A stretch of DNA of 64,000 nucleotides from IMG/VR virus record IMGVR_UViG_3300010149_000008; one strand, written 5' to 3'. The stretch is from a virus. Taxonomy: Duplodnaviria > Caudoviricetes. Under the pieces are notes generated by a model that saw nothing but the letters and a program-made list of their open reading frames with translations, searched no databases and had not been told where the DNA came from. The number at the start of each line of letters is the position of its first letter. The stretch's first letter is position 1. This document shows positions 9,146 to 47,258 of the stretch, in pieces. The position numbers were made by a program, and so were the translations under genes.

Positions 9146-9985
9146 ATGAAATTTATAGTATTTTTTTTGAGTTTATTATTATTAGCTTTTGACATTCCAA
9201 TTGAAAAGATAAAGTCTTCTTACGGTCATATAGAAGCTTATTATAAAGTTCAACCGAAACAAAGTTTGGATTGTGAAAATTGCTTTACATCGATGGAGGC
9301 TTTTCAAGAGATAAGATCAATAAACAAAAAGCTAATGCAAATGGCGTATGTCAAAGCTTCTTCTTTTATAGTTAAAAAGAAAAAATCAGAAACTATTTCT
9401 ATTACTTCTGAACATGTTTGCAAAGAATTAAGCGTCTTTTTAAGAGATCAAAAGTTCAAAGCTTTAGCAAAAGATTTGATGAAGACAATGGCAAAAACAT
9501 ATGCAGACAGTGCTTTATATTCAGAGATATACAGAACTTATGAAATCGTTCCAAAAGCTTATATATATTCTTTTGAAGGAGTAAAGCATGAAATAACATC
9601 GATAATACTCTCAGACAGTAAAATTGATACATGTGCAATTAAATCTTTAGGCGTCTGGGGAAAAGAAGTAACTTTTGCAAAGAGTGGTTGTTTATATGAA
9701 AAAATATTTAATATGTCTAGCTCAGGGGGATATTATCATAAAGGATCAGTAGCTCTAAGAGAAGGATATGTTAACGGAAGAGTTGAAGAGTTAAGAATAC
9801 AAGAAAGAAAGTTTAAAGAAGTAAATCTGTATACTTTGCTAGTTAAACCAGGCGCATCAGGATCTGCTGTATTCAATGTTAAAGGAGAAGTATGTGGATC
9901 AGTTAATATATCTTTTATAAAAGTTGATTTAAGTGCTGGTGCTTCTTATTCTGATCTAACTCAATTTTATAAACAATTGCGTTAA
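9146..9985 (+). CDS. Secreted trypsin-like (S1) serine protease
   Basis: Signal peptide; ITSEHVC (His), KIDTCAI (Asp), PGASGSAV (Ser). Confidence 0.8.
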   Translation: MKFIVFFLSLLLLAFDIPIEKIKSSYGHIEAYYKVQPKQSLDCENCFTSMEAFQEIRSINKKLMQMAYVKASSFIVKKKKSETISITSEHVCKELSVFLRDQKFKALAKDLMKTMAKTYADSALYSEIYRTYEIVPKAYIYSFEGVKHEITSIILSDSKIDTCAIKSLGVWGKEVTFAKSGCLYEKIFNMSSSGGYYHKGSVALREGYVNGRVEELRIQERKFKEVNLYTLLVKPGASGSAVFNVKGEVCGSVNISFIKVDLSAGASYSDLTQFYKQLR

Positions 9986-11206: not shown

Positions 11207-11803
11207 TTAGCCCCAAGCACTTCCTTGTTTGTTTTTAAATGACTTTTTACTTTTTGAAGTAGCTGAATTACGTACGTCAGGCCATAAATAATATACTGTA
11301 TAACCATGTTCAGACTTATATACAGCTTTTTGTTTTCTACCGTTAATATCAATTTCTCCATAGTAATATTTTTGCGGGTCTCCTTGATAAGGTCCAGCTG
11401 GCCATGGTACGTCGAAGCTTCCATCATTACTGACACCTATGCCATTATTTATTCCAGCTTCGTATATTAAATCGTCTTCTGTCATTACAATATCACCAAC
11501 ATCAACATCACTGGGGAAGCCAGACATACCTTTGATATGCTTTGTTAGACTTTCAATTTCAATTTGATAACCATATTCTTCATTAATCATTTCTTCATCA
11601 CCATGCTGATCAAACCTGTCGTAGCAATAAAAAATATCTTTACCATGAATATCTTCTAACTCTTTCAACAAATCTTTTGCTTTTTTTGTAGGATTGTGTC
11701 TAGTTCTTGTTATAGATCCTCCTTGAGATTCGTTAACTTTACTTTTAAATTCGAACTTTCGCCATTCTTTTAAGATTTTTTTTGTCTCATTAGTTTTTTT
11801 CAT
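11207..11803 (-). CDS. Putative internal head protein with ILKEW leader and C-terminal FKNKQGSAWG tag
   Basis: N-term TKKILKEWRKF...VNES; C-term ...GSAWG-stop; upstream ATATTTATTATAGAAAG. Confidence 0.7.
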   Translation of the reverse strand: MKKTNETKKILKEWRKFEFKSKVNESQGGSITRTRHNPTKKAKDLLKELEDIHGKDIFYCYDRFDQHGDEEMINEEYGYQIEIESLTKHIKGMSGFPSDVDVGDIVMTEDDLIYEAGINNGIGVSNDGSFDVPWPAGPYQGDPQKYYYGEIDINGRKQKAVYKSEHGYTVYYLWPDVRNSATSKSKKSFKNKQGSAWG

Positions 11804-11820
11804 GTTGCATCCTTTATTTG

Positions 11821-11837
11821 CTTTCTATAATAAATAT
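11821..11837 (-). promoter_or_regulatory. Candidate late promoter element
   Basis: ATATTTATTATAGAAAG, identical to 39997-40013. Confidence 0.55.
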
Positions 11838-11840
11838 AAT

Positions 11841-12071
11841 CTATATATATAAAATTACGTATTTACCAAACCATATATCAAAAGTACTAATTAAATCTTC
11901 ATAGTTACTCATCTTCATTGTTTTGATAATATCTTCTATTATTATTTTGTCATAACCTAGCTGTTTTCCCAGGCTTTCAGCAAGTGACATCAAGTAATAT
12001 GCATTACCATTAGGCCCACTAAGGTCAACTTCTATGTGTCTGGCAGGTTTTTCTTCTATACTTTTAATCAT
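11841..12071 (-). CDS. Conserved phage hypothetical protein
   Basis: IEVDLSGPNGNAYYLM motif recalled from phage proteins. Confidence 0.65.
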   Translation of the reverse strand: MIKSIEEKPARHIEVDLSGPNGNAYYLMSLAESLGKQLGYDKIIIEDIIKTMKMSNYEDLISTFDIWFGKYVILYI

Positions 12072-12074
12072 ATT

Positions 12075-12338
12075 TCATTCCTTAAAGCTTATAAGTTTAA
12101 ACATGTCATTTGATTTGCTGCTAAATAACTCACTTGCATACACTGACTTAAATTTAATCTTTCTGTTATTTATTAAGAATACTAAAGACCTTTCTTTATA
12201 GGTTGCTCCAAAGTTATTATCTAAAACTAAAAGTATACTTCCTTCTTTTATTACTTTATGATTAAAATGATCTTGCCAAAAGTTAAAAGTTTTTTTAACA
12301 AACAACAAGTCGTTTTCTTTTACTTCGTTTATGATCAT
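12075..12338 (-). CDS. Hypothetical protein
   Basis: Operon packing. Confidence 0.55.
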   Translation of the reverse strand: MIINEVKENDLLFVKKTFNFWQDHFNHKVIKEGSILLVLDNNFGATYKERSLVFLINNRKIKFKSVYASELFSSKSNDMFKLISFKE

Positions 12339-12346
12339 AAAATTAT

Positions 12347-12613
12347 CTATTTAACTATAAAACTATTCTTGCCTTTTTTAAAGCTTTGATAAACTGATTT
12401 TTCTACTAAAGCCCAGTATTTTTTACAACTTACATTAGCAAACATTTTTTCTCTATTTCTATAATGATCTATACCATTAAGAAACTTAATGCAGCCTAAA
12501 GTTTTTACTTCTTTTTCAAAGACACCTATACATACAGCATAAACATAATCTTCTAACTCTAGACAGCTTTTTAGATAGTTTATTTCTCGAGAAAGCTGTT
12601 TATAATTATTCAA
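12347..12613 (-). CDS. Hypothetical protein
   Basis: AAGGAG RBS. Confidence 0.55.
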   Translation of the reverse strand: MNNYKQLSREINYLKSCLELEDYVYAVCIGVFEKEVKTLGCIKFLNGIDHYRNREKMFANVSCKKYWALVEKSVYQSFKKGKNSFIVK

Positions 12614-12699
12614 TACATATCTCCTTAATGTTATGTCAAATCTAATTAAACCTAAAATAGATAGTTATAGATATACTATGAAAAAGGTAATAGACGATT

Positions 12700-13443
12700 A
12701 TGAGAAAAGTCATTCAGACAAAAGAAGTTTTAAAAGAATGGAATTCTTTTTTAATAAAAGAATCAAATGCTGATAGAGTAAAAAGGATGATTGATGATCT
12801 AGAAAGCTTTGGAAAACAAATTCATATTACAGAGCCAAGTAAAAGCGTTATTGTAATTACTTATGGAAAAAATTACACTAGCGGTAATCGAGATGCATCA
12901 AAAAACTTATTTGGACAGATACGCTGTTCAGACACTTCAGCGTCATATGATGATAAACAAAAAGGCATTGGAGCAGGAGAAACAAACTCTTGTTGGGAAG
13001 TTGATTTAACTAGTCACACTACTAAGGGAATGGGTCCTTTGCTTTATGAAGTGCTTATTGAATATATTAGCAATATAAAAAGAGCTTCGCTTAAACCAGA
13101 TGCATCCTCAGTTTCTGATTTAGCAAAAAATGTGTGGAATAAGTTTAACGATAGACCGCAGAACGATGTTAAAAAAATTCAGTTAGATGTTGGTGAAAAA
13201 ACTGTATATAGATTTAAGAGATACAAAAACCAAGATGTTAAACAACTAACACCTGACAATGTTGAAGATGATACGATGCAGGATTCATCAATAAGAGACA
13301 AAGGTTTTGATGCTTGGGAAGAAAGTGCTTTAAGTAAAGCCTATAAAAAACTAGATATGCCGATTATAGATGAACTTAAAGCTAGAAATCTAATTATAAT
13401 GCCTAAAACATTTAAAAGCAAACTAGGCAGTGCATGGGGTTAA
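12700..13443 (+). CDS. GNAT-like putative internal head protein, paralogue 1, with C-terminal FKSKLGSAWG tag
   Basis: VLKEWNSFLIKES leader; KGMGPLLYEVLIEY (GNAT motif-A-like); QLD...LTP...DD shared with 45610 and 46323. Confidence 0.7.
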   Translation: MRKVIQTKEVLKEWNSFLIKESNADRVKRMIDDLESFGKQIHITEPSKSVIVITYGKNYTSGNRDASKNLFGQIRCSDTSASYDDKQKGIGAGETNSCWEVDLTSHTTKGMGPLLYEVLIEYISNIKRASLKPDASSVSDLAKNVWNKFNDRPQNDVKKIQLDVGEKTVYRFKRYKNQDVKQLTPDNVEDDTMQDSSIRDKGFDAWEESALSKAYKKLDMPIIDELKARNLIIMPKTFKSKLGSAWG

Positions 13444-13461: not shown

Positions 13462-14298
13462 TTAGTAATTTGTGATATAAAGATGATTAACTTTTCTTTG
13501 AACTTTATTTCTATCTTTAAAAGCAATATTGTAATTAAACTTATTGCTTTTAATGTTAAATTTCTGGTAAAGACTCTCATATAAAACATCTTCGCAGTGC
13601 ACAATCATCCAATTTGCATGCTTTATATTAGCTACCTCATGAAACAATTCAACGTGATGTCTATCATTCCACTCTTCAACAGGATATCCTGCCCTATTTC
13701 TGTAGGGAGGATCTATAAATATAAAGTTGTCTTTTTTGTCGTTTGCCCTAATACACTTTTTATAGTCTTCACAAGTTATAACTGTTTTGTTCTTTAGAAA
13801 GTCATGATGCTTTTGTGTTAGATTATTAGTAAACTTTTTATACCATCCATAGGGTACATTAAAGTTTTTTGTTTTTTCGTTGACTCTTAACATTCCGCTA
13901 AAGCATAGCTGTCTGATTATGAAAAAAGCGTATGCAGCTTCTGCTCTTTTAGAGTAATCTTTATTGTTTAAAATATCACGCTGCTTATAGAACTCGTCTT
14001 CCAGAGAATGTAGATTAGCTCTGTTTGGGTCATCTTTTCTAGCAAAGGGTATATTAGAATATGCATTTCTAATTAAACTGTCAATCTTTGAGTAATCGCT
14101 AGGGTCTGCTATCGCTTCGTAAAAATTACTAATGTCTTTGTCTAGATCGTTAATAACAGATTTTTTTTCCAAGTGAAAAGCAATTGCAGCGCTTCCTGCA
14201 AAAGGCTCTACTACAGTATCAATAGTTTGAGGAAGCAATTCTACAATTCTTTTAGTCTCTTGCTTTTTTCCACCTGGCCACTTAAACAACTTCTTCAT
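13462..14298 (-). CDS. N6-adenine DNA methyltransferase (Dam/D12, alpha class)
   Basis: KWPGGK, VEPFAGSAA, INDLD, FIDPPY. Confidence 0.92.
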   Translation of the reverse strand: MKKLFKWPGGKKQETKRIVELLPQTIDTVVEPFAGSAAIAFHLEKKSVINDLDKDISNFYEAIADPSDYSKIDSLIRNAYSNIPFARKDDPNRANLHSLEDEFYKQRDILNNKDYSKRAEAAYAFFIIRQLCFSGMLRVNEKTKNFNVPYGWYKKFTNNLTQKHHDFLKNKTVITCEDYKKCIRANDKKDNFIFIDPPYRNRAGYPVEEWNDRHHVELFHEVANIKHANWMIVHCEDVLYESLYQKFNIKSNKFNYNIAFKDRNKVQRKVNHLYITNY

Positions 14299-15183: not shown

Positions 15184-15266
15184 TACCACCAGCCGGGATC
15201 GAACCGGCACGACATAATGTCGGGGGATTTTAAGTCCCCTGCGTCTACCTATTCCGCCATGATGGT
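15184..15266 (-). tRNA. tRNA-Leu(TAA)
   Basis: ACCATCA/TGGTGGT acceptor, GGGGA-CTTAAAA-TCCCC anticodon arm, long variable arm, GGTTCGATCC; no CCA. Confidence 0.95.
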
Positions 15267-15270
15267 GTAA

Positions 15271-15343
15271 AGCTAATAAAGGGACTCGAACCCTTAACCT
15301 GCTGATTACAAATCAGCTGCTCTGCCAATTGAGCTATATTAGC
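15271..15343 (-). tRNA. tRNA-Thr(TGT)
   Basis: GCTGA-TTTGTAA-TCAGC anticodon arm, GGTTCGAGTCC; no CCA. Confidence 0.95.
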
Positions 15344-15350
15344 GATATAG

Positions 15351-15422
15351 TACACCCGGTAGGATTTGAACCTACGACCAATGGCTTAGAAGGCCACTGC
15401 TCTTCCACTGAGCTACGAGTGC
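15351..15422 (-). tRNA. tRNA-Arg(TCT)
   Basis: GTGGC-CTTCTAA-GCCAT anticodon arm, GGTTCAAATCC; no CCA. Confidence 0.95.
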
Positions 15423-15449
15423 TTATTGAGCATTATATGATACTGTATT

Positions 15450-15614
15450 TTAAGTAAATAATTTATTTATAATGTAAATTAAAAAAATAGAAACAAACCC
15501 AGGAGTATAAAAAACAATGCAAAATCTGAAGGATAGGTTTAATACTTCAAGATAAGTTAACTTTTTATCTTTTATAATATAGTCTTTAATGTCATTTATT
15601 GTTTTTTTATACAT
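15450..15614 (-). CDS. Small hypothetical membrane protein (start shifted from track 15740)
   Basis: MYKKTIND... with hydrophobic C-terminus; the longer track version overlaps the next ORF. Confidence 0.45.
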   Translation of the reverse strand: MYKKTINDIKDYIIKDKKLTYLEVLNLSFRFCIVFYTPGFVSIFLIYIINKLFT

Positions 15615-15996
15615 GCTTTTTTTTCGGTATATGCTGAAATATAATGTATGGATACCACTGGTCTGCATATGAAGTACCAATTCTAAGCCATATGTGCTCA
15701 TCTTCAATATCTCTAAGAACGTAACCAGAAAATTCATCATCTATATCAGAATTAATATTTTCCATTCGTACTTTTGCTAAGTTTTTTTGCGCAATAAAAC
15801 TTTTGTTTTGATTAGCATCAGCGTAAAGCACGTAATCAAGCATGCTCCTGTATCCATCCATCTCATCTTCTACAGCTAACCACAATATATTGTCAAATTT
15901 AAAGGTATGTTCTTGTTCGTTTGCACCTTCGTAGTCTCCTACAACGCCAACGAGATTATGAAAGTGGTATAAAATTGATTTTTCTATACATTCCAT
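15607..15996 (-). CDS. Hypothetical protein
   Basis: 129-aa acidic ORF. Confidence 0.6.
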   Translation of the reverse strand: MECIEKSILYHFHNLVGVVGDYEGANEQEHTFKFDNILWLAVEDEMDGYRSMLDYVLYADANQNKSFIAQKNLAKVRMENINSDIDDEFSGYVLRDIEDEHIWLRIGTSYADQWYPYIIFQHIPKKKHV

Positions 15997-16317
15997 TTAA
16001 AGTGTTTCTTCGCTTTCTAGAGTAATTCTTTCAATCTCTTTTTTAAATGCATTGTTATATGAAATAGTATTGGTTTGCGGCATATTATCTATCAGCTGTA
16101 AAGACAATTCAGCATACTCAGTAGTTGCAATTACTGGAAATGTTAAAATTAGATTGTCATCTTCTATAAAAGACTGACAAAATCTACAAGTTAGTTTATC
16201 AAAAAATTGTTCAGGATCTATTTTTGTTTTATGCTTTTTATTAATAGCACTTATTGTTGAGTATATGATATTGTCAGAAAGTGTTGGATGTCTGTTGATC
16301 TTTAAACTTTTATTCAT
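15997..16317 (-). CDS. Hypothetical protein (true start 16317)
   Basis: GAGG RBS before MNKSLKIN; the track's extension runs through the tRNA. Confidence 0.6.
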   Translation of the reverse strand: MNKSLKINRHPTLSDNIIYSTISAINKKHKTKIDPEQFFDKLTCRFCQSFIEDDNLILTFPVIATTEYAELSLQLIDNMPQTNTISYNNAFKKEIERITLESEETL

Positions 16318-16346
16318 ATTTACCTCGTAAAATTTAAAATTATAAA

Positions 16347-16419
16347 TGGGCCCGGTGGGGATTGAACCCACGACCGGCCGATTATGAGTCGGATGCTCTA
16401 ACCACTGAGCTACAGGCCC
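16347..16419 (-). tRNA. tRNA-Ile2(CAT) (lysidine type; elongator Met less likely)
   Basis: GGGCCTGTAGCTCAGTGGTTAGAGCA-TCCGA-CTCATAA-TCGG, typical Ile2 body; no CCA. Confidence 0.9.
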
Positions 16420-16555
16420 GTAAGATATTGAGGTTCCCAACTTCCTCAACTAGACACAGCCTAAATGATCATTACTTCGATCACGCTTCCGCAACCACAA
16501 AATAGCATTCTGCTAGTAATGCATGCTAACTATAATGATGGTCTGTGTCCCCCAC
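16420..16555 (-). ncRNA. Candidate structured ncRNA upstream of tRNA-Ile2
   Basis: Nested complementary stems: GACACAG/CTGTGTC, TAGCAT/ATGCTA, TGATC/GATCA, TTGAGG/CCTCAA in an otherwise AT-rich spacer. Confidence 0.35.
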
Positions 16556-16568
16556 ATATTATATTTAA

Positions 16569-16949
16569 TTATCGAGGTGTTACTAAAATAGTATTTTCTC
16601 CGTTTGTATACACATTAGTAATTTCAGAGCTATCATAGTTTTCTGCTACTTGCTGAATTCTACGAAGTTGATCATTTAGTCTAAACAAAGGAGTAAACTG
16701 TGATGTTCCGTTTTGACGATAGTTGACCTTAGTATATCGGGTCTTTTTATGAGTTGTTGTTACTGTTGTTTCATTAGATCCTGTTTTGACGTTTTGCTCT
16801 GTTGTCTTAATAATTCTATGAACGTTTCCATTTCTATTAGCTGAGTAGTATACTCCTGGGTTTAGTGTATCCATAAACATTGTTGTTCCGTTTTCAATTT
16901 GTCTTGCAGTTGAATTTTCAATAAATCTATTAGTATTAAAGTTGCTCAT
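16569..16949 (-). CDS. Hypothetical protein
   Basis: AAAGGA RBS; TTGTAA-N17-TATAAT upstream. Confidence 0.7.
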   Translation of the reverse strand: MSNFNTNRFIENSTARQIENGTTMFMDTLNPGVYYSANRNGNVHRIIKTTEQNVKTGSNETTVTTTHKKTRYTKVNYRQNGTSQFTPLFRLNDQLRRIQQVAENYDSSEITNVYTNGENTILVTPR

Positions 16950-17021
16950 AAATAATTCCTTTTGTTTAATTGGTTAATGTTTCCATTATAACTGTGTTGT
17001 GTTTAATTTACAAAATTTAAT

Positions 17022-17240
17022 TTAACATACCATATCAGTAATATAGTACCACGGATATACGCTAGAACTCTCAAAAAGTTTGTGATCAATAAACTTAGCA
17101 GTCTCTTCTTCACTTAAACCTTTAGGCACTTCGATATACTCATTCTTTTGTAAAGCGTTGACGTTAATGATTTCTTCTTTGTTTGTTTCTTGCCAACAAA
17201 TAGATGAAATATAATAAAGTGATTGTTTTGAATTTTCCAT
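17022..17240 (-). CDS. Hypothetical protein
   Basis: Own promoter 17274-17303. Confidence 0.65.
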   Translation of the reverse strand: MENSKQSLYYISSICWQETNKEEIINVNALQKNEYIEVPKGLSEEETAKFIDHKLFESSSVYPWYYITDMVC

Positions 17241-17321
17241 TGTAAAATCCTTGTTGGTTGGTGTTGATATAGTATTATATAATTAATTTAATCTAAATTA
17301 CACTTGATAAGACATATTATA

Positions 17322-17618
17322 TTATAATACATCTAACCATCGAGAACAAACTATAAAGAATTCTTTATCTTTTGTTTTCATTAAGATTGCTCTTTTTTTA
17401 TTTCTATTATGTATACACATAATTATTTGAGCAGTCTTATCTTTTGTTTTAACTGACGCAATGTTTATAAAACTTTTTCTCAGTTCAGACTTACAAAAAT
17501 CGATGTTTTCTTGAGACTTATCGAGACAATACAAGTCTTTACTACTTAAAGCAATTTCAGCTGAAGTCAATTGACTTTTTGTAAGATCAGATGTTGATAA
17601 TTTTTTAAACTTGCACAA
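17322..17618 (-). CDS. Hypothetical protein
   Basis: Co-oriented ORF. Confidence 0.55.
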   Translation of the reverse strand: MCKFKKLSTSDLTKSQLTSAEIALSSKDLYCLDKSQENIDFCKSELRKSFINIASVKTKDKTAQIIMCIHNRNKKRAILMKTKDKEFFIVCSRWLDVL

Positions 17619-17902
17619 TGTTGTTGCCTAGCTTTTCAATTTTTGTTTTTTACGTTGATAAATATAACATGATCAGACATGTCATAATGTTGTACTTTAA
17701 CATCTTTATTACTGTTTAAATCATTTTTATCATAAACGTAAATAGAATTTAAACATAAAAATGCTGTTAGCGTTGTTATGACGCAATAAAAAGTTTTCAT
17801 ATTTCCCTCTTTTAAATTTTCATAATGAACTTTAATTATATTATACCACAGTTTTTTAAAACAATTTTTAAAATATACTGATTTTTTAAAGCTTAGCTTT
17901 TA

Positions 17903-18211
17903 TCAAGCGTTAAGCTGAGAGCCATTGTGAATTAAAAACTTATTGTCAATATGTCTGACTAATACTTCATTATAATAAAACTCTTCTATCTCAGATTTTG
18001 GATTTAAAATCTTCAATTCACAAGATCCTTCTTCTACTTCGAAGTTAAAAACCAAGCTACATTCAACAACCCCCACTGCTCTACTATTGTAAACAAAATT
18101 AAAATAATTTGAAAGATCATTTGAAAACATATCAGAAAGATTCATATCTATTTCTATCATGTCTTCTATTTCAATTGCGTAATCTGCAATTTCGTGGTCT
18201 GAATTGAACAT
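17903..18211 (-). CDS. Hypothetical acidic protein
   Basis: AAGGA RBS. Confidence 0.6.
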   Translation of the reverse strand: MFNSDHEIADYAIEIEDMIEIDMNLSDMFSNDLSNYFNFVYNSRAVGVVECSLVFNFEVEEGSCELKILNPKSEIEEFYYNEVLVRHIDNKFLIHNGSQLNA

Positions 18212-18247
18212 ACTTTATCCTTTAATTGCTTTATATTAAAAAAATGT

Positions 18248-18391
18248 TTAGTAGTTTTTTTTATTTATGAAGTCTATAAAGCTATATAAAATAGCAAATG
18301 TAATAGGAATAATTATTGTTATAGCACTATAGCGAGTTAAGGCTAAAAAAACAATAATTAAAAAAACATACAATATAGTTTCTGCTTTCAT
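18248..18391 (-). CDS. Small hydrophobic membrane peptide (47 aa, not in track)
   Basis: MKAETILYVFLIIVFLALTRYSAITIIIPITFAILYSFIDFINKKNY read manually. Confidence 0.5.
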   Translation of the reverse strand: MKAETILYVFLIIVFLALTRYSAITIIIPITFAILYSFIDFINKKNY

Positions 18392-18400
18392 GTTGTATTT

Positions 18401-18628
18401 CTAGTAGTCTTTATTATTAGAAATTTTATTTAAATAGTTTATGTTTATACTATCACCATCATCAAATTGTTCGTGATCTTCGTGTACACATCCGTAATCT
18501 TCATTTTCATCTTGAAAACTTAAAACTTCTTCTTTAAAAGCTTTATTTCTCGTATTGTTAGTAGTATCGAATATAAAGCCTGTAACTAATGTTATTGATA
18601 ATAAGGTTACTAAAATTAAACGAAGCAT
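18401..18628 (-). CDS. Small exported protein
   Basis: AGGAG RBS; N-terminal hydrophobic segment. Confidence 0.6.
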   Translation of the reverse strand: MLRLILVTLLSITLVTGFIFDTTNNTRNKAFKEEVLSFQDENEDYGCVHEDHEQFDDGDSININYLNKISNNKDY

Positions 18629-18655
18629 AATATCTCCTAATAAGTTTTTAAAAAT

Positions 18656-18727
18656 TGGGTCGCCCGGGACTCGAACCCGGAACCAATGGATTAAAAGTCC
18701 ACTGCTCTACCATTGAGCTAGCAACCC
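18656..18727 (-). tRNA. tRNA-Lys(TTT)
   Basis: GGGTTGC/GCGACCC acceptor, GTGGA-CTTTTAA-TCCAT anticodon arm; no CCA. Confidence 0.95.
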
Positions 18728-18867
18728 ATATGTTTTACTTTTCGTAGTTAATGATGTTATGTTTAAATAAATTAATTAATTCGCTATGCTTTTTATATTA
18801 GACCTATATAACTTGAAGATTTATATACATGATTATATTATGTTATTTACATTTGTATAAATTATAT

Positions 18868-19476: not shown

Positions 19477-19881
19477 CTAATTTACACGCTTTGTAAAATC
19501 TTTTTCATATTCTTTATCAACTGAAATGTATAAAACTCTATGATCTATAAATTCTTTGAATTCTTTAAACACATAGTCTCCTTTGTAATCTTTTACTATA
19601 GAAGAAATATATCTTTGACATACAATTTTTTTTCTTTTAATTTCTAAGTTTAGCAAACAACTGTCTTTGTCAAAGCATCTAGCTACAAGATAAGATTTTA
19701 ACTCATGCAAGTTTTTGTTTACTTCTACAACTGTAGAACTTTTATTTTTATATCTTGTTACTTCGTCACATGTTACTTCTTTATATCCACTTTCTTTTAA
19801 GTAAATTATGTCCAAGACTTTTTCGTTATCACAAGAAAAAAGCAAAGATAAAGAAAAAATTAACAATAGCACTTTACTCAT
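19477..19881 (-). CDS. Putative lipoprotein
   Basis: MSKVLLLIFSLSLLFSC lipobox-like. Confidence 0.6.
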   Translation of the reverse strand: MSKVLLLIFSLSLLFSCDNEKVLDIIYLKESGYKEVTCDEVTRYKNKSSTVVEVNKNLHELKSYLVARCFDKDSCLLNLEIKRKKIVCQRYISSIVKDYKGDYVFKEFKEFIDHRVLYISVDKEYEKDFTKRVN

Positions 19882-22621: not shown

Positions 22622-22909
22622 CTAGTCTACAACATAAATAATATCACAATCGCTAGATAGCGTTGCAGGTGTTACGTCACCTTTTTTTGCATGAATATAG
22701 TCAGGAGCTTCAACAACCTTCCACTTTGCGTAATAACCATCACTATTTTTTTCATTACTCACTTTTCCTGTTGATATACCATGAAAAGTTATTTTGCCTC
22801 CACTTCTACATATAATCTCAGCACGTTGGCCAAACGTTGTATACTTACTCCATTCAGCATCTGTACAAGAGAAAAATAAAGCTGTAATTAAAATTAAGTA
22901 TTTCTTCAT
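22622..22909 (-). CDS. Putative lipoprotein
   Basis: MKKYLILITALFFSC lipobox-like. Confidence 0.65.
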   Translation of the reverse strand: MKKYLILITALFFSCTDAEWSKYTTFGQRAEIICRSGGKITFHGISTGKVSNEKNSDGYYAKWKVVEAPDYIHAKKGDVTPATLSSDCDIIYVVD

Positions 22910-29978: not shown

Positions 29979-30293
29979 TTAATTAACTTCTTTAATCTTG
30001 CCTTCTATATTAACTCTTAACTTGTCGTTAGTATAACATCCCATGCTGTTCTCATGATAAATACCTTCTAAATCTCTAAATCTATATACACCACTTCTTG
30101 ATCCATAACTATTTCTCCAAGACTTACTACTAACTACATGTCTCATAACATGTCCTAAAGGATGCTTGCAAAAGATTACATAGTTAATAAACTCTTCTTC
30201 TTCCACTTCTTCAACATTAGAATCAGAATGATTGCATGCAGCTGTAAATAATAACATCAAAATAATAAAAACCTTACTCATCAAATACTCCAA
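29979..30293 (-). CDS. Putative lipoprotein
   Basis: MSKVFIILMLLFTAAC lipobox-like. Confidence 0.6.
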   Translation of the reverse strand: MEYLMSKVFIILMLLFTAACNHSDSNVEEVEEEEFINYVIFCKHPLGHVMRHVVSSKSWRNSYGSRSGVYRFRDLEGIYHENSMGCYTNDKLRVNIEGKIKEVN

Positions 30294-32747: not shown

Positions 32748-33722
32748 TTAGCTGTTAGCGAAGATGTCTTCATCCATGTCTTCGATATCAAAGTCGTTTA
32801 AGTCATCGGCAAGATCTTCAAGAGTTAATACTTCTTCAGTTTCGGTCGCGACGTCTTCAGTTGTTTGATCAGCTTCAGCTTCTGTTTCTTTTGCTTCAGG
32901 CTTCGCGATGACTTCTAGCTTTTTTGAGTGAGGAGTCCCATCTAGAGTTTCGATAACATTTTCTAGGTCAGCTGTTGGGATATAATGTAGATGTTTCGGG
33001 TGATCATCAGTTGCGCCGTTAATGCGAACTTCAAATGCAGCGGATTGAACTCCATTATCTAGACGAGGGCCTGAAAATCTGATCCATGCATAACCAGCTT
33101 CTTTAATGAATGCTCTGTAATTAGATGTATCTGAGTTTTCTTCATCAAACTTATTTAGAGTTTCTTCGATATCGCTGATTTGTAGCTTTACCCATTTAGC
33201 TCCGCGTCCTCCGAACTGAGCTTTGAGGACTGATCGCCAATCTGTACCATCAGCTGCCTTAGCTGTTCGACCGCAGAGATGTTTGATATCAGATTTGATT
33301 AGATTATCTAGATGACGTTTGAATTCAGTTACCTTTGGAGATCCGCCGTCTTGAGTGAACTGATTGAAAAGTTGAATGATAAGATCTTGTGAGCTCATGT
33401 TAACCTCATTGTTATTAGGAGTTGAATTAATTGAGTTATCCATGTTATTGTCCTCAGGATTGATTGGTTGGGGTTGTTGAGTTATTGTATCATTGTTGTT
33501 TTCTGTTTTACACGCTTCGATTATTTCCCAGTCATATACCAGCCAACCATGTTCATCACTCAGTGCGTCAGTGATTTGATAGCTGTCAACTGCAGTTGGA
33601 TCTTCGAAGTATTCAGTAAGGTCTACTACGATTGGGATACCGTTTTCTTCAGCAAACTTATCATGTTCCTCAGTGTTATCAGGGTTAGGTAAGTCAAAGT
33701 CCCAGATGATTTGAATATGCAT
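32748..33722 (-). CDS. GRG/AWIR paralogue family copy 3 with extra N-terminal domain and acidic tail
   Basis: GGSPKVTEFKRH, FGGRGAKW, GYAWIRFSGPR, FEVR, GTPHSKKLE; internal RBS+ATG at 33443 and 33398. Confidence 0.8.
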   Translation of the reverse strand: MHIQIIWDFDLPNPDNTEEHDKFAEENGIPIVVDLTEYFEDPTAVDSYQITDALSDEHGWLVYDWEIIEACKTENNNDTITQQPQPINPEDNNMDNSINSTPNNNEVNMSSQDLIIQLFNQFTQDGGSPKVTEFKRHLDNLIKSDIKHLCGRTAKAADGTDWRSVLKAQFGGRGAKWVKLQISDIEETLNKFDEENSDTSNYRAFIKEAGYAWIRFSGPRLDNGVQSAAFEVRINGATDDHPKHLHYIPTADLENVIETLDGTPHSKKLEVIAKPEAKETEAEADQTTEDVATETEEVLTLEDLADDLNDFDIEDMDEDIFANS

Positions 33723-38293: not shown

Positions 38294-39109
38294 TTAGCCC
38301 TCGTAAGTGCCAAAGAGATCTTCATCGCCATCTTCGTCGAATTGATCAGCGCCAAGTCCTTCACTCGCGAGGAAGTCTTCCCAGTCTTCAGGATTATCAG
38401 TTGTTGGAGGCTCAGCGTGAGCTGAACCACCGTCGTCGTAAGGATTCAGCTCGGATGCGCTAAGCTCTTGAACTTCATAGTTCTCATCAGTCTCGTCGCT
38501 CACTGGATCATCGCTCACTGGATCATCGCTAGGCTTTACTTCGTCTTTCGTCGCGATTACCTCGAGCTTTAGGGAATGAGGAGTACCTTTGAGAGGACTA
38601 ATCTTATCATCAAGCTCCTCATCTAAGATGTAATGGAGAGACTTAGGGCAGTCATAAGTAGATCCAACTGTTCGAACTTCGAAAGCTGCCATGTTCTTTT
38701 GTTCTTTGTTCTTTCCCGTCGTGACGCGAGGTCCCGCGTAGCGTATCCAAGCATGGCCGGCTTCTTCAGTCCAAGATCGATAATCAGCTGTATCAAAGCC
38801 TTCATCATCAAGTCGATCAAGAGTTAATGAAAGCTCATCATTTGAAACTTCCTGCCACTTAGCTCCTCTGCCGGCAAAACGAGCTTTCTGAACTGAACGC
38901 CAAGATGATCCATCGACAGCAGATGATCCTCGACCTGAACAGAGTGGCTTGATCTTGTCCTTGATAAGACGATCAATGTGACGCTTGAACTCTGTTACTT
39001 TTGGCGATCCACCTGCAGCAATAAAGTCGTTGAACAGGTTTTCGATTAAACTGTAATGATCCATAGGAGTCTCCTGGACTTGAGTTTGGGTTTGAGTTGC
39101 GTTAGACAT
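38294..39109 (-). CDS. GRG/AWIR paralogue family copy 4 with acidic tail
   Basis: GGSPKVTEFKRH, FAGRGAKW, GHAWIRYAGPR, FEVR, GTPHSLKLE; GGAG RBS, promoter 39150-39180. Confidence 0.8.
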   Translation of the reverse strand: MSNATQTQTQVQETPMDHYSLIENLFNDFIAAGGSPKVTEFKRHIDRLIKDKIKPLCSGRGSSAVDGSSWRSVQKARFAGRGAKWQEVSNDELSLTLDRLDDEGFDTADYRSWTEEAGHAWIRYAGPRVTTGKNKEQKNMAAFEVRTVGSTYDCPKSLHYILDEELDDKISPLKGTPHSLKLEVIATKDEVKPSDDPVSDDPVSDETDENYEVQELSASELNPYDDGGSAHAEPPTTDNPEDWEDFLASEGLGADQFDEDGDEDLFGTYEG

Positions 39110-40017: not shown

Positions 40018-40341
40018 TTGAATATGAGAATAACCGAGAGAAGATTGAGAAGACTGATAAGAAGTGTAATCAAAGAAACTGTTAGCGATTATCGTTTAAG
40101 CGTTGATTTTAGTCAAAAAGTTGAAAGTATGATTGACGAAGTTAAACCAGGGTTTATTAAAAATTGTCGAATGTTAAGAATTTTTGATGAAAGTGACTTA
40201 GATGATTATAAAGTTAGCGATTTTTTAAGAAAGTATTTAGGTGAGGTTATTCATCTTATGGGAGAAGAAACAGCCAAGAGGCGATTTGCCGGCAACTATC
40301 ATAGTGTTACTCAAGATTTTAAAAGATACTTGGGAATGTAA
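40018..40341 (+). CDS. Putative internal head protein
   Basis: MRITERRLRRLIRSVIKE leader; upstream ATATTTATTATAGAAAG. Confidence 0.65.
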   Translation: MNMRITERRLRRLIRSVIKETVSDYRLSVDFSQKVESMIDEVKPGFIKNCRMLRIFDESDLDDYKVSDFLRKYLGEVIHLMGEETAKRRFAGNYHSVTQDFKRYLGM

Positions 40342-40483: not shown

Positions 40484-41323
40484 ATGTTATTAAAAGAATA
40501 CGTTTCGTTTTACATAAAAGAAGCTATTTCACATAAAAAGATAAGTTTAGTTGTAAATGAGTTGAATAAAATAACTATGAATTATAGAGCTAGTAGTAGT
40601 AGCTATTCATTGTATTATGACTTAGTTAAAGTTGTTGACAAGTTTGGATTAAAAAAGCTAGGAGCAGGTGTTTCTAGAAAAGCATATTCTTTAGAAAACG
40701 AAGACTGGGTTTTAAAGTTTGCATATGGACATAATGACGTTGATTACTTAGACGCTTTAGACACAAACGCTGAAGAGGTAGAAATTAGTCAAGGGTTTCA
40801 TGGAATGGGATCTCGAGACATGTTTGTTAAAGTTTATGACTGGGATAAGTTGAGCGAGAAGCCTGCTTGGATAATTGCTCAAAAAGTAATAACATTGTCA
40901 GAAGCTTGGCGTACAATGACTTTTTTAGATCTGCAAAAAATATTTCCTACTTTTTGGAATGCTTTGTACAAAGATGCAAAAGAAAAGACATCAAAAAACT
41001 TTTTTTGTGATTTTGTTGCGGATACTATGTTTGAAATTAGTATTGAGTCTTCACTTCGTGGAAAAAATTCAAGTGGTTTAAAAGAAGAAGGTTTTTACAT
41101 AGCTATGAAAGAAGCTGCGATAAGCGAACTGAGTTTAATGCCTATTGAAGCCATCAGGTTTGACTTAGACTTTCTTAGAATTGCTCGAGCATGTGCATAC
41201 AGTAGACCTGATGATATGCACAGTGGCAATATAGGGATAATTCCTTCACGTGATGTTAGCCCAAAAGATATAGTTATATTAGATTATATGTTAGACTTTG
41301 GTTCAGATACTTATACAGTATAA
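40484..41323 (+). CDS. Protein-kinase-like fold protein, paralogue 1
   Basis: LGAGVSRKAY Gly loop, WVLK Lys, EEVE, DMHSGN catalytic loop, VILDY. Confidence 0.75.
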   Translation: MLLKEYVSFYIKEAISHKKISLVVNELNKITMNYRASSSSYSLYYDLVKVVDKFGLKKLGAGVSRKAYSLENEDWVLKFAYGHNDVDYLDALDTNAEEVEISQGFHGMGSRDMFVKVYDWDKLSEKPAWIIAQKVITLSEAWRTMTFLDLQKIFPTFWNALYKDAKEKTSKNFFCDFVADTMFEISIESSLRGKNSSGLKEEGFYIAMKEAAISELSLMPIEAIRFDLDFLRIARACAYSRPDDMHSGNIGIIPSRDVSPKDIVILDYMLDFGSDTYTV

Positions 41324-41379: not shown

Positions 41380-41973
41380 ATGGACAACAAAGAATTTAAA
41401 TTGTTAATTGAAGGTTTTGACAAGTTTTTGTTAAGTGAGCATATAGGTCATACAGCACAGCGTACAAAATTATTCGATGAAATTCCGAGTGAGTTTAAGC
41501 CTTATATAAATGACACAATGAGCTGGTATAATGGTGATGCATGGATGGCTGAAACTGATCATGATAGTTTAGACGAAGAAGAAGATGAAAAATTGCTTTT
41601 TGAAGAAGTAGCAAAAGCATGTGGCTGTAGTGTCAAAGATTTGCTAGTTCATTTTGTTGACAACTTTACTTACGAAATTGACTATGGTTCTTCAGCAGGT
41701 AGTGTTAACTCGCAAGACTTTTTAAACTCTTATAGATCAAATGGAACTTTATGTGGATCTTTTGAAATTGATGGAGTTTCTTTGAAAGGGTTTTATTTTA
41801 TGCTTGGAACAGATGAAACACAATTTGGAATACAATTTGATGGTGCTATGAGTAGTAGAAATTTAAAAGGACTGATTTTTGTTGCACCATCATGTTCAGG
41901 TTTAAGTTCACAACAAAAAAGTGTAGAGCCTAAAAAGCAATTTAAGTCTAGCCTAGGTGGAGCTTGGGGTTAA
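41380..41973 (+). CDS. Putative internal head protein with C-terminal FKSSLGGAWG tag
   Basis: FKLLIEGFDKFLLSE leader; ...GGAWG-stop. Confidence 0.7.
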   Translation: MDNKEFKLLIEGFDKFLLSEHIGHTAQRTKLFDEIPSEFKPYINDTMSWYNGDAWMAETDHDSLDEEEDEKLLFEEVAKACGCSVKDLLVHFVDNFTYEIDYGSSAGSVNSQDFLNSYRSNGTLCGSFEIDGVSLKGFYFMLGTDETQFGIQFDGAMSSRNLKGLIFVAPSCSGLSSQQKSVEPKKQFKSSLGGAWG

Positions 41974-42004: not shown

Positions 42005-42817
42005 ATGATTTTAGAGAAATATGTTAAAAATTATTTAATAGAAAATCTTAAAATTGATGATATTTCTATAATTGACAGTGTTATTGAAAGATTAAATGAC
42101 GCCGGAAAAGTTCTTCTGGATGATTTATATTCTCAAGGTGATGAAAAGTACTATCATCATTACGCTTTCGAAGTTTTTGATAATGTTGCTTATTCAAATA
42201 GCCCTAAGCTTGAGGAATTAGGGAAAGGTGCTTTTCGAAGAGTATATTCAATACCAGGTGAAGAATGGGCATTGAAATTATCGTATAATACTGAAGCTGC
42301 AAAGATAAACAAGGAAGAAGTAAATATTAGTCAAGGAAAGCATGGTTTGGCAGCAAGAGATATTTTTATAAAAGTATACGACTATGATAAGTTGACTGAG
42401 TATCCTTGCTGGATTATATGCCAAAAAGTATTTCCGATGGAAGACATTGCTGATTTAAATATTTTAAAAAAAGTTTTTCCTACATTTTGGAACATGATCA
42501 AAGAAGGTGACATACACAAGACAGCGGGTCATCATTTTATCAGTATGATTAGTTCAGCATTAACTATGTTTGGTTATTATTTAAGCAAAAACAATCGAGA
42601 AACAAAAAAAGCTTTTTTCCAAGCAGTTGAAGATCTATGTGAAACATATGATTTCAATGATATTGTTTTCTATGATGACTTTAAAAGAATAAGTTCAGCG
42701 TACAATTATATCAGTACTACAGACATGCATGAAGGAAATTTTGGTTTAGTAAGTTTAATTAATCCAAGCCCAGAGTCTTTTGTTATTATAGACTTTGATG
42801 TAGATTCTCATGTTTGA
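42005..42817 (+). CDS. Protein-kinase-like fold protein, paralogue 2
   Basis: LGKGAFRRVY, WALK, EEVN, DMHEGN, VIIDFD. Confidence 0.78.
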   Translation: MILEKYVKNYLIENLKIDDISIIDSVIERLNDAGKVLLDDLYSQGDEKYYHHYAFEVFDNVAYSNSPKLEELGKGAFRRVYSIPGEEWALKLSYNTEAAKINKEEVNISQGKHGLAARDIFIKVYDYDKLTEYPCWIICQKVFPMEDIADLNILKKVFPTFWNMIKEGDIHKTAGHHFISMISSALTMFGYYLSKNNRETKKAFFQAVEDLCETYDFNDIVFYDDFKRISSAYNYISTTDMHEGNFGLVSLINPSPESFVIIDFDVDSHV

Positions 42818-42973: not shown

Positions 42974-43783
42974 TTACCAGATGACTGCTATTCCAGTTTT
43001 AAAAATAATATCTGATTTTTTTATTTTTACTGCAGGTTCTGAGTCATGTAAATAAGCAAACGATGTATTTATTCCAAGCTTAAACAATTTTGATTTTAGT
43101 ATAGATGATCTTAGATTGACTTCGTTATTAACTCTATAGTCTTTATAATTTAACAATAACGGTTGATAATAAGATGTAATAGAGATAAAACTGCTGTTAT
43201 CATTTACAAAGCTTTTTATTATTGTCATGTATGAAGTAATTCTAGCATTCATTGTAGTTTCATAAGAAATTTGTTCATAATCTGACATTATACCTGTACC
43301 AAATGCAAATTTAAAAATTTTTGTTTTTGTAATTACTTTTTCAATTCTTATTCCAACGCCATTTAACTGACGCAAACTTAAGTCTTTAAACTCATCATAT
43401 TGAGTTTGAGTAAATATTTCATACCCTATGAAATTGTGAAGCATAATAGTATATCTAAAGTGAGAAAAAGCATTGTTTCTGTACAATATTTTGTCTTGAT
43501 ATCCTTTGCTAACTGAACTTTTTAATAAAATATGATGTTTATTATATTTATAGTGAAGATCTTTTTTTAATTCATAAGCCTGCGAATTAACGTTTCCTTT
43601 TTGTAGTTGAATTCCACAGTTTAAAGATCCATAAAAACCTTCTTTCTTTGCTTCTTCTCTAAAGCTTTCTATATTTACTTGAGAAAAAGAATTGTTTAAA
43701 TTAAACAAACAAACAAACATAATTGCTAAAAATTTTGTTTTCAAATTATTGTCTCCTTTAACTAAAAAGTATTTTATAAGCAT
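42974..43783 (-). CDS. Outer-membrane beta-barrel protein, DUF481-like
   Basis: Signal peptide then QVNIESFR, KGNV, HFRY, FTQTQYDEFKDLSLRQLNGVGIR, YYQP, DYRV; aromatic C-terminus (W). Confidence 0.72.
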   Translation of the reverse strand: MLIKYFLVKGDNNLKTKFLAIMFVCLFNLNNSFSQVNIESFREEAKKEGFYGSLNCGIQLQKGNVNSQAYELKKDLHYKYNKHHILLKSSVSKGYQDKILYRNNAFSHFRYTIMLHNFIGYEIFTQTQYDEFKDLSLRQLNGVGIRIEKVITKTKIFKFAFGTGIMSDYEQISYETTMNARITSYMTIIKSFVNDNSSFISITSYYQPLLLNYKDYRVNNEVNLRSSILKSKLFKLGINTSFAYLHDSEPAVKIKKSDIIFKTGIAVIW

Positions 43784-45279: not shown

Positions 45280-45573
45280 ATGAAAAGTGATGATTTATAT
45301 ATCATACAATCAGACGTAACAGGAATGATTAAAGTTGGTAGGTCAAAAAACCCTGACAAACGTTTAAAGCAGCTACAAACTGGCAATCCAAACAAGCTTA
45401 GACTTATTGCTTTTTTTAAAGGCGAAGGGTGGAAAGAAAAACTAATTCATGAAGAACTTAAACGTTGGAGAAAAGAAGGTGAGTGGTTTAGCTATGATTG
45501 TGTAGGTAGTATACCCGTAAGTCTTTATGAAAAAATTGATTTTGGTTCATTTGATGATTGGTGGGATAAGTAG
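45280..45573 (+). CDS. GIY-YIG nuclease, T5orf172/MUG113-like
   Basis: LYII...IKVGRSKNPDKRLKQLQTGNP...EKLIH...EGEWF. Confidence 0.85.
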   Translation: MKSDDLYIIQSDVTGMIKVGRSKNPDKRLKQLQTGNPNKLRLIAFFKGEGWKEKLIHEELKRWRKEGEWFSYDCVGSIPVSLYEKIDFGSFDDWWDK

Positions 45574-45609: not shown

Positions 45610-46311
45610 ATGAATAAAAATAATAATAAAGAAATTTTTAAAGAATGGGTTTACTTTATTAGAAATACAAATTCCAACATTTTAAAAGAAAGTCTAAACA
45701 TAGAAAATCAAATTGAAAAAGCAAAAAAAAAGATATGCGAAGTAGAAAACCAAAAGTTAAGTATAAGAATAACTAAAGAAGTAAACGAATTCGTATTAAT
45801 TTCTGAAATTGTTGATTCACAAAACACTAGCTTTATTATTGACGATGTAGCTTATATTAGCTTTAAAAAATTTAAATATAGTAATGTTATTGATGAAGAA
45901 AGCAACATTAGAAATTGTTATGTAATTGATTTTACAGAGTTTGTAAAGTATGATTTAGGCCCATTGATGTACGATATCATGATAGAATATGTCTCAAAAG
46001 ATAATTCTGTTTTATGTCCAGATAGATTTGAGATATCTAATGAAGCCAAATCTTTATGGGAAAATTATTTTTACGAAAGAAATGATATAAAAACTGTGCA
46101 GCTAGATATTGAAAATGATTCTTTGGATAATAAAAAATTTCCTAACTTAACTCCGCAGTTAGAGGATGACTTTTATCAGAATGTTTCTATATCACATAAA
46201 GGAACTAGTTGGTATGAAAGCCCGTTTTCAAAAGGATATTATAAAAACAATGCATATGTTATTGAAAAGTTATCATATGATCCATTGTTTATATTAAAAG
46301 GAATTTTATAA
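45610..46311 (+). CDS. GNAT-like putative internal head protein, paralogue 2
   Basis: IFKEW...ILKES leader; LGPLMYDIMIEY, PDR..IS..A..LW, QLD, LTP. Confidence 0.7.
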   Translation: MNKNNNKEIFKEWVYFIRNTNSNILKESLNIENQIEKAKKKICEVENQKLSIRITKEVNEFVLISEIVDSQNTSFIIDDVAYISFKKFKYSNVIDEESNIRNCYVIDFTEFVKYDLGPLMYDIMIEYVSKDNSVLCPDRFEISNEAKSLWENYFYERNDIKTVQLDIENDSLDNKKFPNLTPQLEDDFYQNVSISHKGTSWYESPFSKGYYKNNAYVIEKLSYDPLFILKGIL

Positions 46312-46322
46312 AAGGAAAATAT

Positions 46323-47258
46323 ATGTTAATAAATAGAAAAGAATATAAAAAAATAGTCAAAGAATGGAATAGGTTTAATTCAATTCAAGAAGCATTTAAT
46401 CTTGTAAAAAAGCCTGATCATGTTGATGAAGATGACTGGAAGTTTGATTTTGGTTACGAAGATGAGACTGAAGATAATTACAATCAAGTTTCTTCTAAAA
46501 GTAAAGAATTCTACAATGAATTTGATCCTATTAAAGATAAAGCTAAAATAGAAAAATTTAATTCTAATAACGCTACATACGGTGTTAACTCCAAAATATT
46601 TAGTATAATTAATAAACTTGAGAACTACGTTCAGCAAGAAAGAGAATTAAAAAATGACAACAGCATTGTTGGTAAAATTTTACTTTATGAAGACGAGTAT
46701 GAAGGTTTTGTAAAGTTTGATTTTTCTAATTTTACATCTGCTTGGCCTAACAGCAACAGTCCTGTTTCTAGTACGATTGACTTTGAGTCAACAGACAAAG
46801 ATTGGTCTCCTGGATACGGCAAAGGAGCATATAGACATATGCTTACACATAAGTCAACTATTGGAGTAAGTTCTGTACTTTTTGAAATAATGCTTGAGTT
46901 TGTTTCTGTTGTTAGAGAAAAAGGAATATGCTCTGATCGTTATTCTTCAACTGTTGAGGCACAAAAAAAATGGCAAATATATGCTAATAGAAGTGACGTA
47001 GAAACAGAACAGCTTGACATTAACAAAGACGACTCAGAAAAACATAAATTACCACAACTTACACCAGATGACCCTACAGACGATGCAGCGCAGGGACTTG
47101 CAATAAAACATAAAGGAAACGAGTGGTATAATTCAATTTTTTCTAAAATAATAAAAAAGAAAGATATGAATACAATTAAATACATATGTAATCATTCAAA
47201 TCATTTAGACCTAATAATATCAATAACAAATGAAAGCCAGTTTACTTCAAAAATATAA
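46323..47258 (+). CDS. GNAT-like putative internal head protein, paralogue 3
   Basis: IVKEWNRF..IQEA leader; VSSVLFEIMLEF, SDR, QLD, LTP, DD. Confidence 0.7.
   Translation: MLINRKEYKKIVKEWNRFNSIQEAFNLVKKPDHVDEDDWKFDFGYEDETEDNYNQVSSKSKEFYNEFDPIKDKAKIEKFNSNNATYGVNSKIFSIINKLENYVQQERELKNDNSIVGKILLYEDEYEGFVKFDFSNFTSAWPNSNSPVSSTIDFESTDKDWSPGYGKGAYRHMLTHKSTIGVSSVLFEIMLEFVSVVREKGICSDRYSSTVEAQKKWQIYANRSDVETEQLDINKDDSEKHKLPQLTPDDPTDDAAQGLAIKHKGNEWYNSIFSKIIKKKDMNTIKYICNHSNHLDLIISITNESQFTSKI

Follow-up and report, generated by a model that had tools for sequence, protein, structure and literature searches.

Why should three genes of one uncultured jumbo phage of marine origin, dispersed over both strands and with largely dissimilar protein bodies, end in nearly the same ten residues? 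The question is raised by a 64,000-nucleotide stretch of the IMG/VR virus record IMGVR_UViG_3300010149_000008 (Duplodnaviria; Caudoviricetes), hereafter the window, in which an original prediction made from the sequence alone had placed a common C-terminal F-K-x3-G-x-A-W-G tag on three putative virion proteins, here called A, B and C. The tag proves to be a real motif that is under purifying selection at the level of the peptide, disordered in structural models, modular, and confined to proteins bearing an N-terminal leader. Our main new result is that it exists as lineage-specific alleles common to different families on one contig. We consider it about an even bet (a probability of roughly 0.5) that the tag is a C-terminal short linear docking motif, carried by a subset of putative head cargo and read by one protein partner. 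All three open reading frames (ORFs) were recovered with the endings first described, FKNKQGSAWG (A), FKSKLGSAWG (B) and FKSSLGGAWG (C), at the positions and on the strands claimed for them:

11207..11803, minus strand: gene A, 198 amino acids, an orphan composed of leader, body, Ser/Lys-rich linker and tag (ORF).
11210..11245, minus strand: tag of A, K-S-F-K-N-K-Q-G-S-A-W-G, the last 12 codons, followed by TAA at 11207-11209.
12700..13443, plus strand: gene B, 247 amino acids, a divergent GNAT-like body between leader and tag (ORF, AlphaFold2 (AF2) model, fold matches).
13405..13440, plus strand: tag of B, K-T-F-K-S-K-L-G-S-A-W-G, four residues past the last strand of the fold.
41380..41973, plus strand: gene C, 197 amino acids, an alpha/beta body that resembles no known fold; two kinase-like genes flank the gene (ORF, AF2 model).
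41935..41970, plus strand: tag of C, K-Q-F-K-S-S-L-G-G-A-W-G (ORF, six-frame scan).

Chance does not account for these endings. A six-frame scan of the window (493 stop-to-stop frames) found G.AWG in three places only, each immediately 5' of a stop, against an expectation of 1.2 × 10−4 such endings per 98 genes at the amino-acid frequencies of the window (P for three or more ~3 × 10−13). Across the three families, the tag is kept in 52 of 87 metagenomic homologues at body identities of 40-60%, and a Trp-anchored alignment yields a consensus of 12 residues, K-x-[FY]-K-S-[KSR]-L-G-[GS]-A-W-x, worth ~34 bits, with G and W invariant and L and A nearly so. A single residue follows the Trp in 51 of these 52 tags, always a small or polar one (G 32, N 9, S 5, D 3, E 2, absent 1). 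This tally bears on the suggestion, made in the original prediction, that the terminal Gly could be a handle for conjugation or modification, as in ubiquitin or Pup. The three window copies do all end in Gly, but the final residue varies among the homologues, with none of the invariance of the C-terminal Gly (or GG/GGQ) of ubiquitin- and Pup-like systems; A and B differ even on one contig (N and S, respectively, in the related locus L017), and no ligase-like gene was seen in the window. We regard a Gly handle as extremely improbable. The L017 pair also rules out that the final residue is co-ordinated within a genome.

Selection on the tag acts on the peptide and not on the DNA, because its codons vary synonymously and the sequences past the stop codons are dissimilar. 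Specifically, the window copies differ by synonymous codons (GGA/GGC/GGT, GCT/GCA, AAA/AAG) and the DNA 3' of their stops is unrelated; among 13 genuine distinct tag-coding DNAs, the codons of K, L, G and A show synonymous variation, and both AGY and TCT serve for Ser. The first reading of the window had argued for peptide-level selection from different codon usage, and relatives now bear this out. Synonymous variation and unrelated flanks also rule out a DNA-level element such as a terminator, a promoter or a recombination site. In two confident models (B and C), tag and linker have a predicted local distance difference test (pLDDT) score below 50. Two processing sites were considered for the tail and rejected. 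A prohead-protease site within or just before the tag would show as a conserved [LI]-x-E, of which there is none in the three family alignments, so the tail should survive maturation. Double-glycine sites are expected to have a hydrophobic residue at -4; for a cut by the C39 peptidase of the window (K-L-G-G/A-W-G) this residue sits at -3, GS and other alleles misfit, and the peptidase looks exported. The motif was not found in the indexed literature, in line with the earlier remark that it was not recognised as a described one.

By its predicted fold, B is a divergent GNAT-like protein, a likeness at the fold level only and with modest Z values. Its AF2 model, built on the family alignment (pLDDT 82, predicted template modelling score (pTM) 0.80, with residues 1-22 of the leader and 238-247 of the tag below 50), was searched with VIA-align against 48,161 PDB representative chains, and the best 50 matches were all of the GNAT superfamily (Z 5.0-6.4, over residues ~30-224). 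Foldseek matches were weak and likewise GNAT-type, and in the ESM Atlas B lies among phage GNAT-like clusters whose neighbours are partly Acetyltransf_1; no Pfam family was found for B at E ≤ 0.1. The AF2 model of C (pLDDT 79) is a compact alpha/beta body with a disordered stretch of 23 residues at its end (175-197, linker and tag). Searches of PDB and AFDB gave it no matching fold (best Z 3.1), the ESM Atlas offered no lead, and the C family comprises only 15 representative clusters among 1.84 billion proteins. Gene A belongs to no Pfam or PHROG family and gave no ESM Atlas lead; it has 18 metagenomic homologues, with the basic form of the tag in 14 of 17 aligned members.

When A, B and C were compared with one another by BLASTP, alignment was limited to the first ~20 and the last ~12 residues, and profile-profile comparison of the three family alignments gave nothing significant once leader and tag had been trimmed. 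An initial full-length profile alignment of A with C reached 86% probability, which was lost upon trimming; we therefore rejected this match as evidence of homology, its score having come from the common ends. That B is unrelated to A and C is secure, given the GNAT-like fold and the null result with trimmed profiles, so the claim of dissimilar bodies holds firmly for B. For the other pair it needs a qualification: A and C could be paralogues of great age, given that the relatives L042, L049 and L051 have A-type and C-type genes in tandem with an intermediate member that weakly matches both. The original prediction had named restriction to these genes together with full-length homology as one outcome that would undo it; the tag is indeed confined to few families, but full-length homology did not survive trimming.

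The tag behaves as a modular add-on, as had been claimed on the strength of two further GNAT-like genes in the window that end without it (ORF ends, BLASTP):

45610..46311, plus strand: B paralogue D, with leader and without tag, a comparison case (30% identity to B, E 6e-25).
46323..47258, plus strand: B paralogue E, with leader and without tag, a comparison case (ORF, BLASTP).

Related loci extend this picture to orthologues. In L040, B is untagged, with no remnant of the tag in other frames, and the neighbouring A retains FKLRLGGAWN, which rules out that loss is coupled across genes; in L038 and L039, B is untagged and A is absent. The tag is thus gained and lost gene by gene. Nor is it a genome-wide label, being restricted to a small number of proteins. 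Among 419 genes on 18 contigs of the clade, a penultimate Trp occurs 24 times where ~5 are expected, and neighbouring positions have 5-7; the excess comes entirely from families A, B and C/I plus one ORF of 54 amino acids in L051. A scan of the metagenomes with a 38-bit tag pattern returned six true matches, all of family A or B, and no further tagged family; five chance matches all lay in a single repeated non-coding element. In the IMG/VR collection, from which the clade is absent, two degenerate back-translations of the tag found only chance matches (short non-coding frames on contigs of unrelated GC). The small ORF of L051 (641-805, plus strand, on a single 815-bp contig) joins an N-terminus resembling that of A (..ELEFKN..) to the tail ..PKINNDFGMWD through a linker of low complexity, and contains little else; it represents a minimal protein of leader and tag, or else a gene in decay.

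The tag differs between lineages and, within a lineage, is common to different families on one contig. Four alleles were distinguished:

(i) Basic, FKxKLG[GS]AW: the window, L017, L040 and most relatives; carried by A, B and C.
(ii) PLDFEGS[AV]W: L042, a relative of 37% GC; carried by the A-orthologue, the intermediate member and the C-orthologue.
(iii) Acidic, RFGDIEDG[ED]GWD: L049 and L015; carried by C homologue P0081 and B homologues P0017/19/21.
(iv) PKIN...GMWD: L051; carried by two adjacent ORFs.

Finer variation is likewise common to different families, with a basic sub-variant FKLRLGGAWN in A (P0075, P0078, L033, L040) and C (P0053, P0056) and FKLRLG in B (P0015). In L042, PLDFEGS[AV]W stands on three of four adjacent leader-bearing genes. 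For the acidic allele, the sequence is RFGDIEDGDGWD on the C of L049 (P0081) and RFGDIEDGEGWD on the B homologues P0017/19/21; the gene that adjoins P0081 is an A homologue (P0074) with a different acidic tail, ..FDDEIDDQDDEVLGMFS. Every allele has a Gly and, 1-3 residues on, an aromatic residue beside the end, nearly always Trp and in the A tail of allele (iii) Phe. Around this core, the net charge of the last 16 residues ranges among orthologues from about +4 to -8, the acidic tails having -6 to -8. Such variants, held in common by different families on one contig, are what a recognition signal would produce, and the original proposal of a recognition signal gains by them.

A reversal of charge with the Gly...Trp core kept is hard to fit to DNA or an anionic membrane and natural for a protein pocket that changes along with the tag. 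We infer that a single reader exists and that it is a protein. The reversal also weighs on the proposal that the tag is a basic aromatic anchor, MinD-like, which places its carriers at the host inner membrane (a destination the original prediction had listed) or holds them on packaged DNA. The basic allele does resemble a MinD tail, with a net charge of +2 to +5 and F, L and W spaced i, i+4, i+8. Other lineages, however, carry tails of -6 to -8 with Gly and Trp kept, which makes targeting to DNA or to the host membrane unlikely; an invariant G-[GS] falls in the middle of the would-be helix, and neither model (B, C) has a helix there. The helix and conserved positive charge that define MinD/FtsA-type amphipathic targeting are thus both missing from the tag, and its conservation far exceeds what amphipathicity needs. 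Overall, we hold an anchoring role to be very unlikely.

Could the common ending instead have no common reader at all? It would then be an end piece spread by inheritance or recombination, with a generic role such as solubility or capping of the fold: A, the intermediate member and C would descend from one tandem-duplicated tailed gene, B would have acquired its tail by illegitimate recombination, and gene conversion would homogenise the copies. The tandem A-type/C-type arrays with their intermediate member speak for this, as do the confinement of the tag to these families, the 86% full-length match of A and C, and the near-identical tag DNA within L042, where 29 of 29 nucleotides are identical in two genes and a third has three differences. 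Recombination evidently spreads a tag cassette in L042. The A-C score, however, vanished with leader and tag, and the tags differ synonymously within the window and between L015 and L049, so that they are not products of recent conversion (between B and C, the acidic tags share 37 of 42 nucleotides, and three of the five differences are synonymous). In the acidic lineage, furthermore, A has a tail unlike those of B and C in sequence, which has nevertheless shifted in the same direction of charge. Invariant G and W at a fixed distance from the end, in ~50 diverged sequences, amount to a constraint well beyond a generic cap. We judge the absence of a common reader fairly unlikely; probably, gene conversion and co-evolution with a common reader are both at work, and long-term retention of the tag under peptide-level selection needs a function either way.

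A reader of another kind would be a protease. In this explanation, the tag is a C-terminal degron or protease tail whose exposed W-x-COOH is recognised by a protease or unfoldase, of host or phage origin, that keeps the carrier enzymes short-lived by acting on unpackaged copies late in infection or on ejected copies early in the next. Formally this is a special case of one protein reader, and the position of the motif at the extreme C-terminus, its disorder and the fixed distance from Trp to carboxylate would all suit it. Lifetime control could be useful for the GNAT-like carrier, whose relatives include toxins, and a gene for a secreted Trypsin_2 protease is syntenic with A and B. That gene is also present in L038 and L039, however, where B is untagged and A is absent, and its signal peptide means that the product would act outside the cytoplasm. 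Moreover, a motif of ~34 bits is far more sequence-specific than the degrons we are aware of, and a reversal of tail charge is unexpected for one conserved host protease. We think a degron unlikely.

What would connect the tagged proteins to the phage head is their other end. Every tag carrier has an amphipathic N-terminal leader that ends in [LIV]-x-E, in the window as follows:

11729..11803, minus strand: leader of A, residues 1-25, ..ILKEWRKFEFKSKVNE, ending KVNE (ORF, alignments, profile match).
12700..12762, plus strand: leader of B, residues 1-21, ..VLKEWNSFLIKE, ending LIKE (ORF, alignments).
41380..41439, plus strand: leader of C, residues 1-20, ..FKLLIEGFDKFLLSE, ending LLSE (ORF, alignments).

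Paralogues D and E and both kinase-like proteins also have such a leader; in these four, as in A, B and C, the [LIV]-x-E lies in the first 13-25 residues. The leader of A matches that of B by profile (93% probability). An (L/I)-x-E leader had been claimed for A, B and C; all three have a leader, with V in place of L/I in the A of the window and L/I in most A orthologues. In phage T4, internal head proteins reach the scaffolding core by means of an N-terminal capsid-targeting sequence (CTS), which the gp21 protease cuts after the Glu of I/L-x-E, for instance at ITE-6 and LTE-619 in Alt (PMC5694885, PMC3012670). The leaders of the carriers have the sequence features of a T4-type CTS, an N-terminal amphipathic peptide with an I/L-x-E end, and the tag does not. 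The carriers are putative head cargo because their leaders resemble this sequence. A second class of leader, M-R-I-T-E-R-R-L-R-x-x-I-R-x-V-I-x-E, heads many otherwise different proteins (in the window at 40024-40341, plus strand) and is strongly expanded in L041 5842-13119 and L043 5809-11697, reaching six or more per 8 kb; the Trp tag is absent from all proteins with this leader.

If the tag is a docking motif, a few leader-bearing and presumably capsid-packaged proteins would present it on a flexible linker at their free C-terminus. The recognition core would consist of the Gly and, 1-3 residues later, the Trp beside the last residue; the free carboxylate would probably be part of the epitope, because the Trp adjoins the last residue. 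The half that precedes this core (F-K-x-K-L here) would provide a lineage-specific and largely electrostatic fit. As to where the reader sits, we weakly and tentatively prefer the virion, either its interior (inner face of the shell, portal, inner body or scaffold) or its exit channel, in which case the tag would retain or arrange its carriers within the head, or initiate their passage out through the tail. The main alternative is a host protein met after ejection. A bolder version would be a two-part address, in which a cleavable T4-like leader loads the prohead and the permanent C-terminal tag docks the protein at one site inside the particle or has it enter the tail first upon ejection; basic, PLDFE and acidic alleles would then mark co-evolution with the docking site. 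We find this doubtful.

Several observations weigh against a docking motif with one protein reader. No recognisable peptide-binding domain was found among the ~98 proteins of the window, and no partner was found. The cargo status of the carriers is inferred from their leaders. In two homologues, P0060 (L042 10001-10597) and P0081 (L049 170-745), the motif is internal, followed by 16-21 extra residues, which misfits a strict dependence on a free C-terminus; these extensions could reflect a lost stop codon or be tolerated. The restriction to three or four families among the 419 clade genes means that the tag is no general address label. The tandem arrangement of A, intermediate and C genes in relatives may mean that part of the sharing is inheritance from one ancestral gene, and in L042 recent duplication or gene conversion could produce the uniformity of the tag with no reader involved. 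Finally, allele (iii) resembles a class of acidic, aromatic-ended tails from which it may have been swapped in, as another tag that has its own partner. This second tail class is strongly acidic (e.g. ..DEDGDEDLFGTYEG) and occurs on leaderless proteins, in the window at 38294-39109 and 32748-33722 (minus strand) and also in L015, L041, L042 and L043.

The surroundings of the tagged genes were surveyed as well. Near A and B, a Trypsin_2-like protease with a signal peptide (9146-9985, plus strand) is syntenic with both in every relative examined (L017, L038, L039, L040), untagged ones included. Gene C is flanked by two paralogues of 33% identity (40484-41323 and 42005-42817, plus strand) with [LI]-x-E leaders and kinase-like motifs (Gly-rich loop, V/A-L-K, D-M-H-x-G-N, D-F/Y-D-like) and without a Pfam match; their orthologues adjoin C in L041 and L043, and the two are possibly packaged kinases. 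Further on, a leader-bearing protein of 481 amino acids (..YLLKHFFKEISSIRLNE; 43758-45203, minus strand), conserved in L041 and L043, has a hydrophobic segment and a lysozyme-like stretch, F-E-G-F-K-P-Y-P-Y-K-D..G..T-I-G-Y-G, with no Pfam or PHROG match. A phage-encoded DUF481 outer-membrane beta-barrel with a signal peptide (42974-43783, minus strand) ends in ..GIAVIW, and its gene adjoins the presumed cargo cluster in L041 and L043 too.

Overall, the window is AT-rich phage DNA (31% GC) that encodes a helicase, PhoH, collagen-like tail fibres and five tRNAs. Its proteins map to approximately the first 64 kb, reversed, of a 256,231-bp contig from a marine metagenome (ENA ERZ27249212, k141_115948), and marine assemblies, among them Tara and GOS, also supplied the homologues of A, B and C. 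No close phage is deposited: megablast of the window matched a tRNA only, none of A, B and C had a tblastn match among 50,697 phage records, and the helicase is ~30% identical to those of jumbo phages only (Tunturi_5, XacN1, Bacillus phage G). The five tRNA genes (15184-18728, minus strand; Leu-TAA, Thr-TGT, Arg-TCT, Met-CAT, Lys-TTT) all read A/T-ending or common codons of the AT-rich genome. The Pfam survey of 89 window ORFs additionally identified a Dam-type methylase (13462-14298), RNase H-like, Pol-beta-like palm/thumb, HSP20 and NUDIX proteins, an Hc1 histone-like protein, a T5orf172/MUG113 domain protein (45280-45573) and, at the start of the window, a C39-like peptidase that adjoins a TSP3-repeat protein. 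Small proteins at 19477-19881, 22622-22909 and 29979-30281 (minus strand) have lipoprotein signals that end in ..F-S-C or ..A-A-C, with acidic or polar residues next; signals of this style, together with that of the DUF481 protein, are typically found in Bacteroidota, a hint at the host.

Little is understood of how large phages select, order and deliver the many dozens of proteins injected together with their DNA, and to our knowledge the N-terminal CTS of T4 is the only well-defined address for such proteins. If our reading is correct, the tag would be a second, sharply defined address on putative cargo (a GNAT-like protein and two orphans) and a handle on sub-sorting or ejection, for which the natural series of basic, PLDFE and acidic alleles would supply built-in specificity controls. 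Should the reader be a host protein, the tag would mark injected effectors aimed at one host hub. The value of the finding is limited by the clade being uncultured and the tag-carrying families being few.

Comparison with known systems helps to place the tag. In phage replication, docking tails let one hub read several proteins, such as the clamp-binding tails of T4 and the acidic tails of T7 gp2.5 and gp4, which end in Phe. The likeness lies in unrelated proteins of one phage having a similar short tail with an aromatic residue near the carboxylate; those tails, however, are acidic and found on DNA-handling proteins, whereas the tag is mostly basic, has a Gly...Trp core and sits on putative head cargo. 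The effectors of type IV secretion carry unstructured C-terminal signals, basic in VirB/D4 and Glu-rich in Dot/Icm, that are read by the export machine. Here too, C-terminal tails are found on unrelated proteins and their charge varies by system, which offers an analogy for an ejection signal, but type IV signals are loosely defined by composition and the tag is a sharply defined motif.

The CTS of T4, found on IPI-III and Alt, is likewise a short peptide common to unrelated proteins that marks a group for the head, and A, B and C have leaders very like it. It differs in being N-terminal and removed, whereas the tag is C-terminal, additional to the leader and present on some leader-bearing proteins only; a second, C-terminal address on head cargo is not described in the T4 packaging papers (PMC3012670, PMC5694885). 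The cargo-loading peptide of Family 1 encapsulins is similar in that ~10 C-terminal residues on a flexible linker are carried by unrelated cargo enzymes, a layout that the tag shares on its putative cargo. The genes for such encapsulin cargo adjoin that of the shell; no capsid gene was found in the window or in the related loci examined, the head genes of the phage lying outside the window. The encapsulin peptide docks, with a small L-G-x-G-S-L-type core, on the luminal face of an HK97-fold shell, in a pocket formed by an N-terminal helix of a kind usually missing from phage capsid proteins (PMC8346489). Its consensus, SDGSLGIGSLKRS, contains no Trp (PMC8346489), and the tag has the L-G in common with it and not the G-S-L core. 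The tag thus lacks a defining feature of the T4 CTS and of the encapsulin peptide, and it differs from the replication tails in charge, core and carriers. If the two-part address were nevertheless correct, the tag would be the first C-terminal cargo-loading peptide in a tailed phage, a counterpart to that of encapsulins, and a ready handle for loading foreign proteins into large phage heads.

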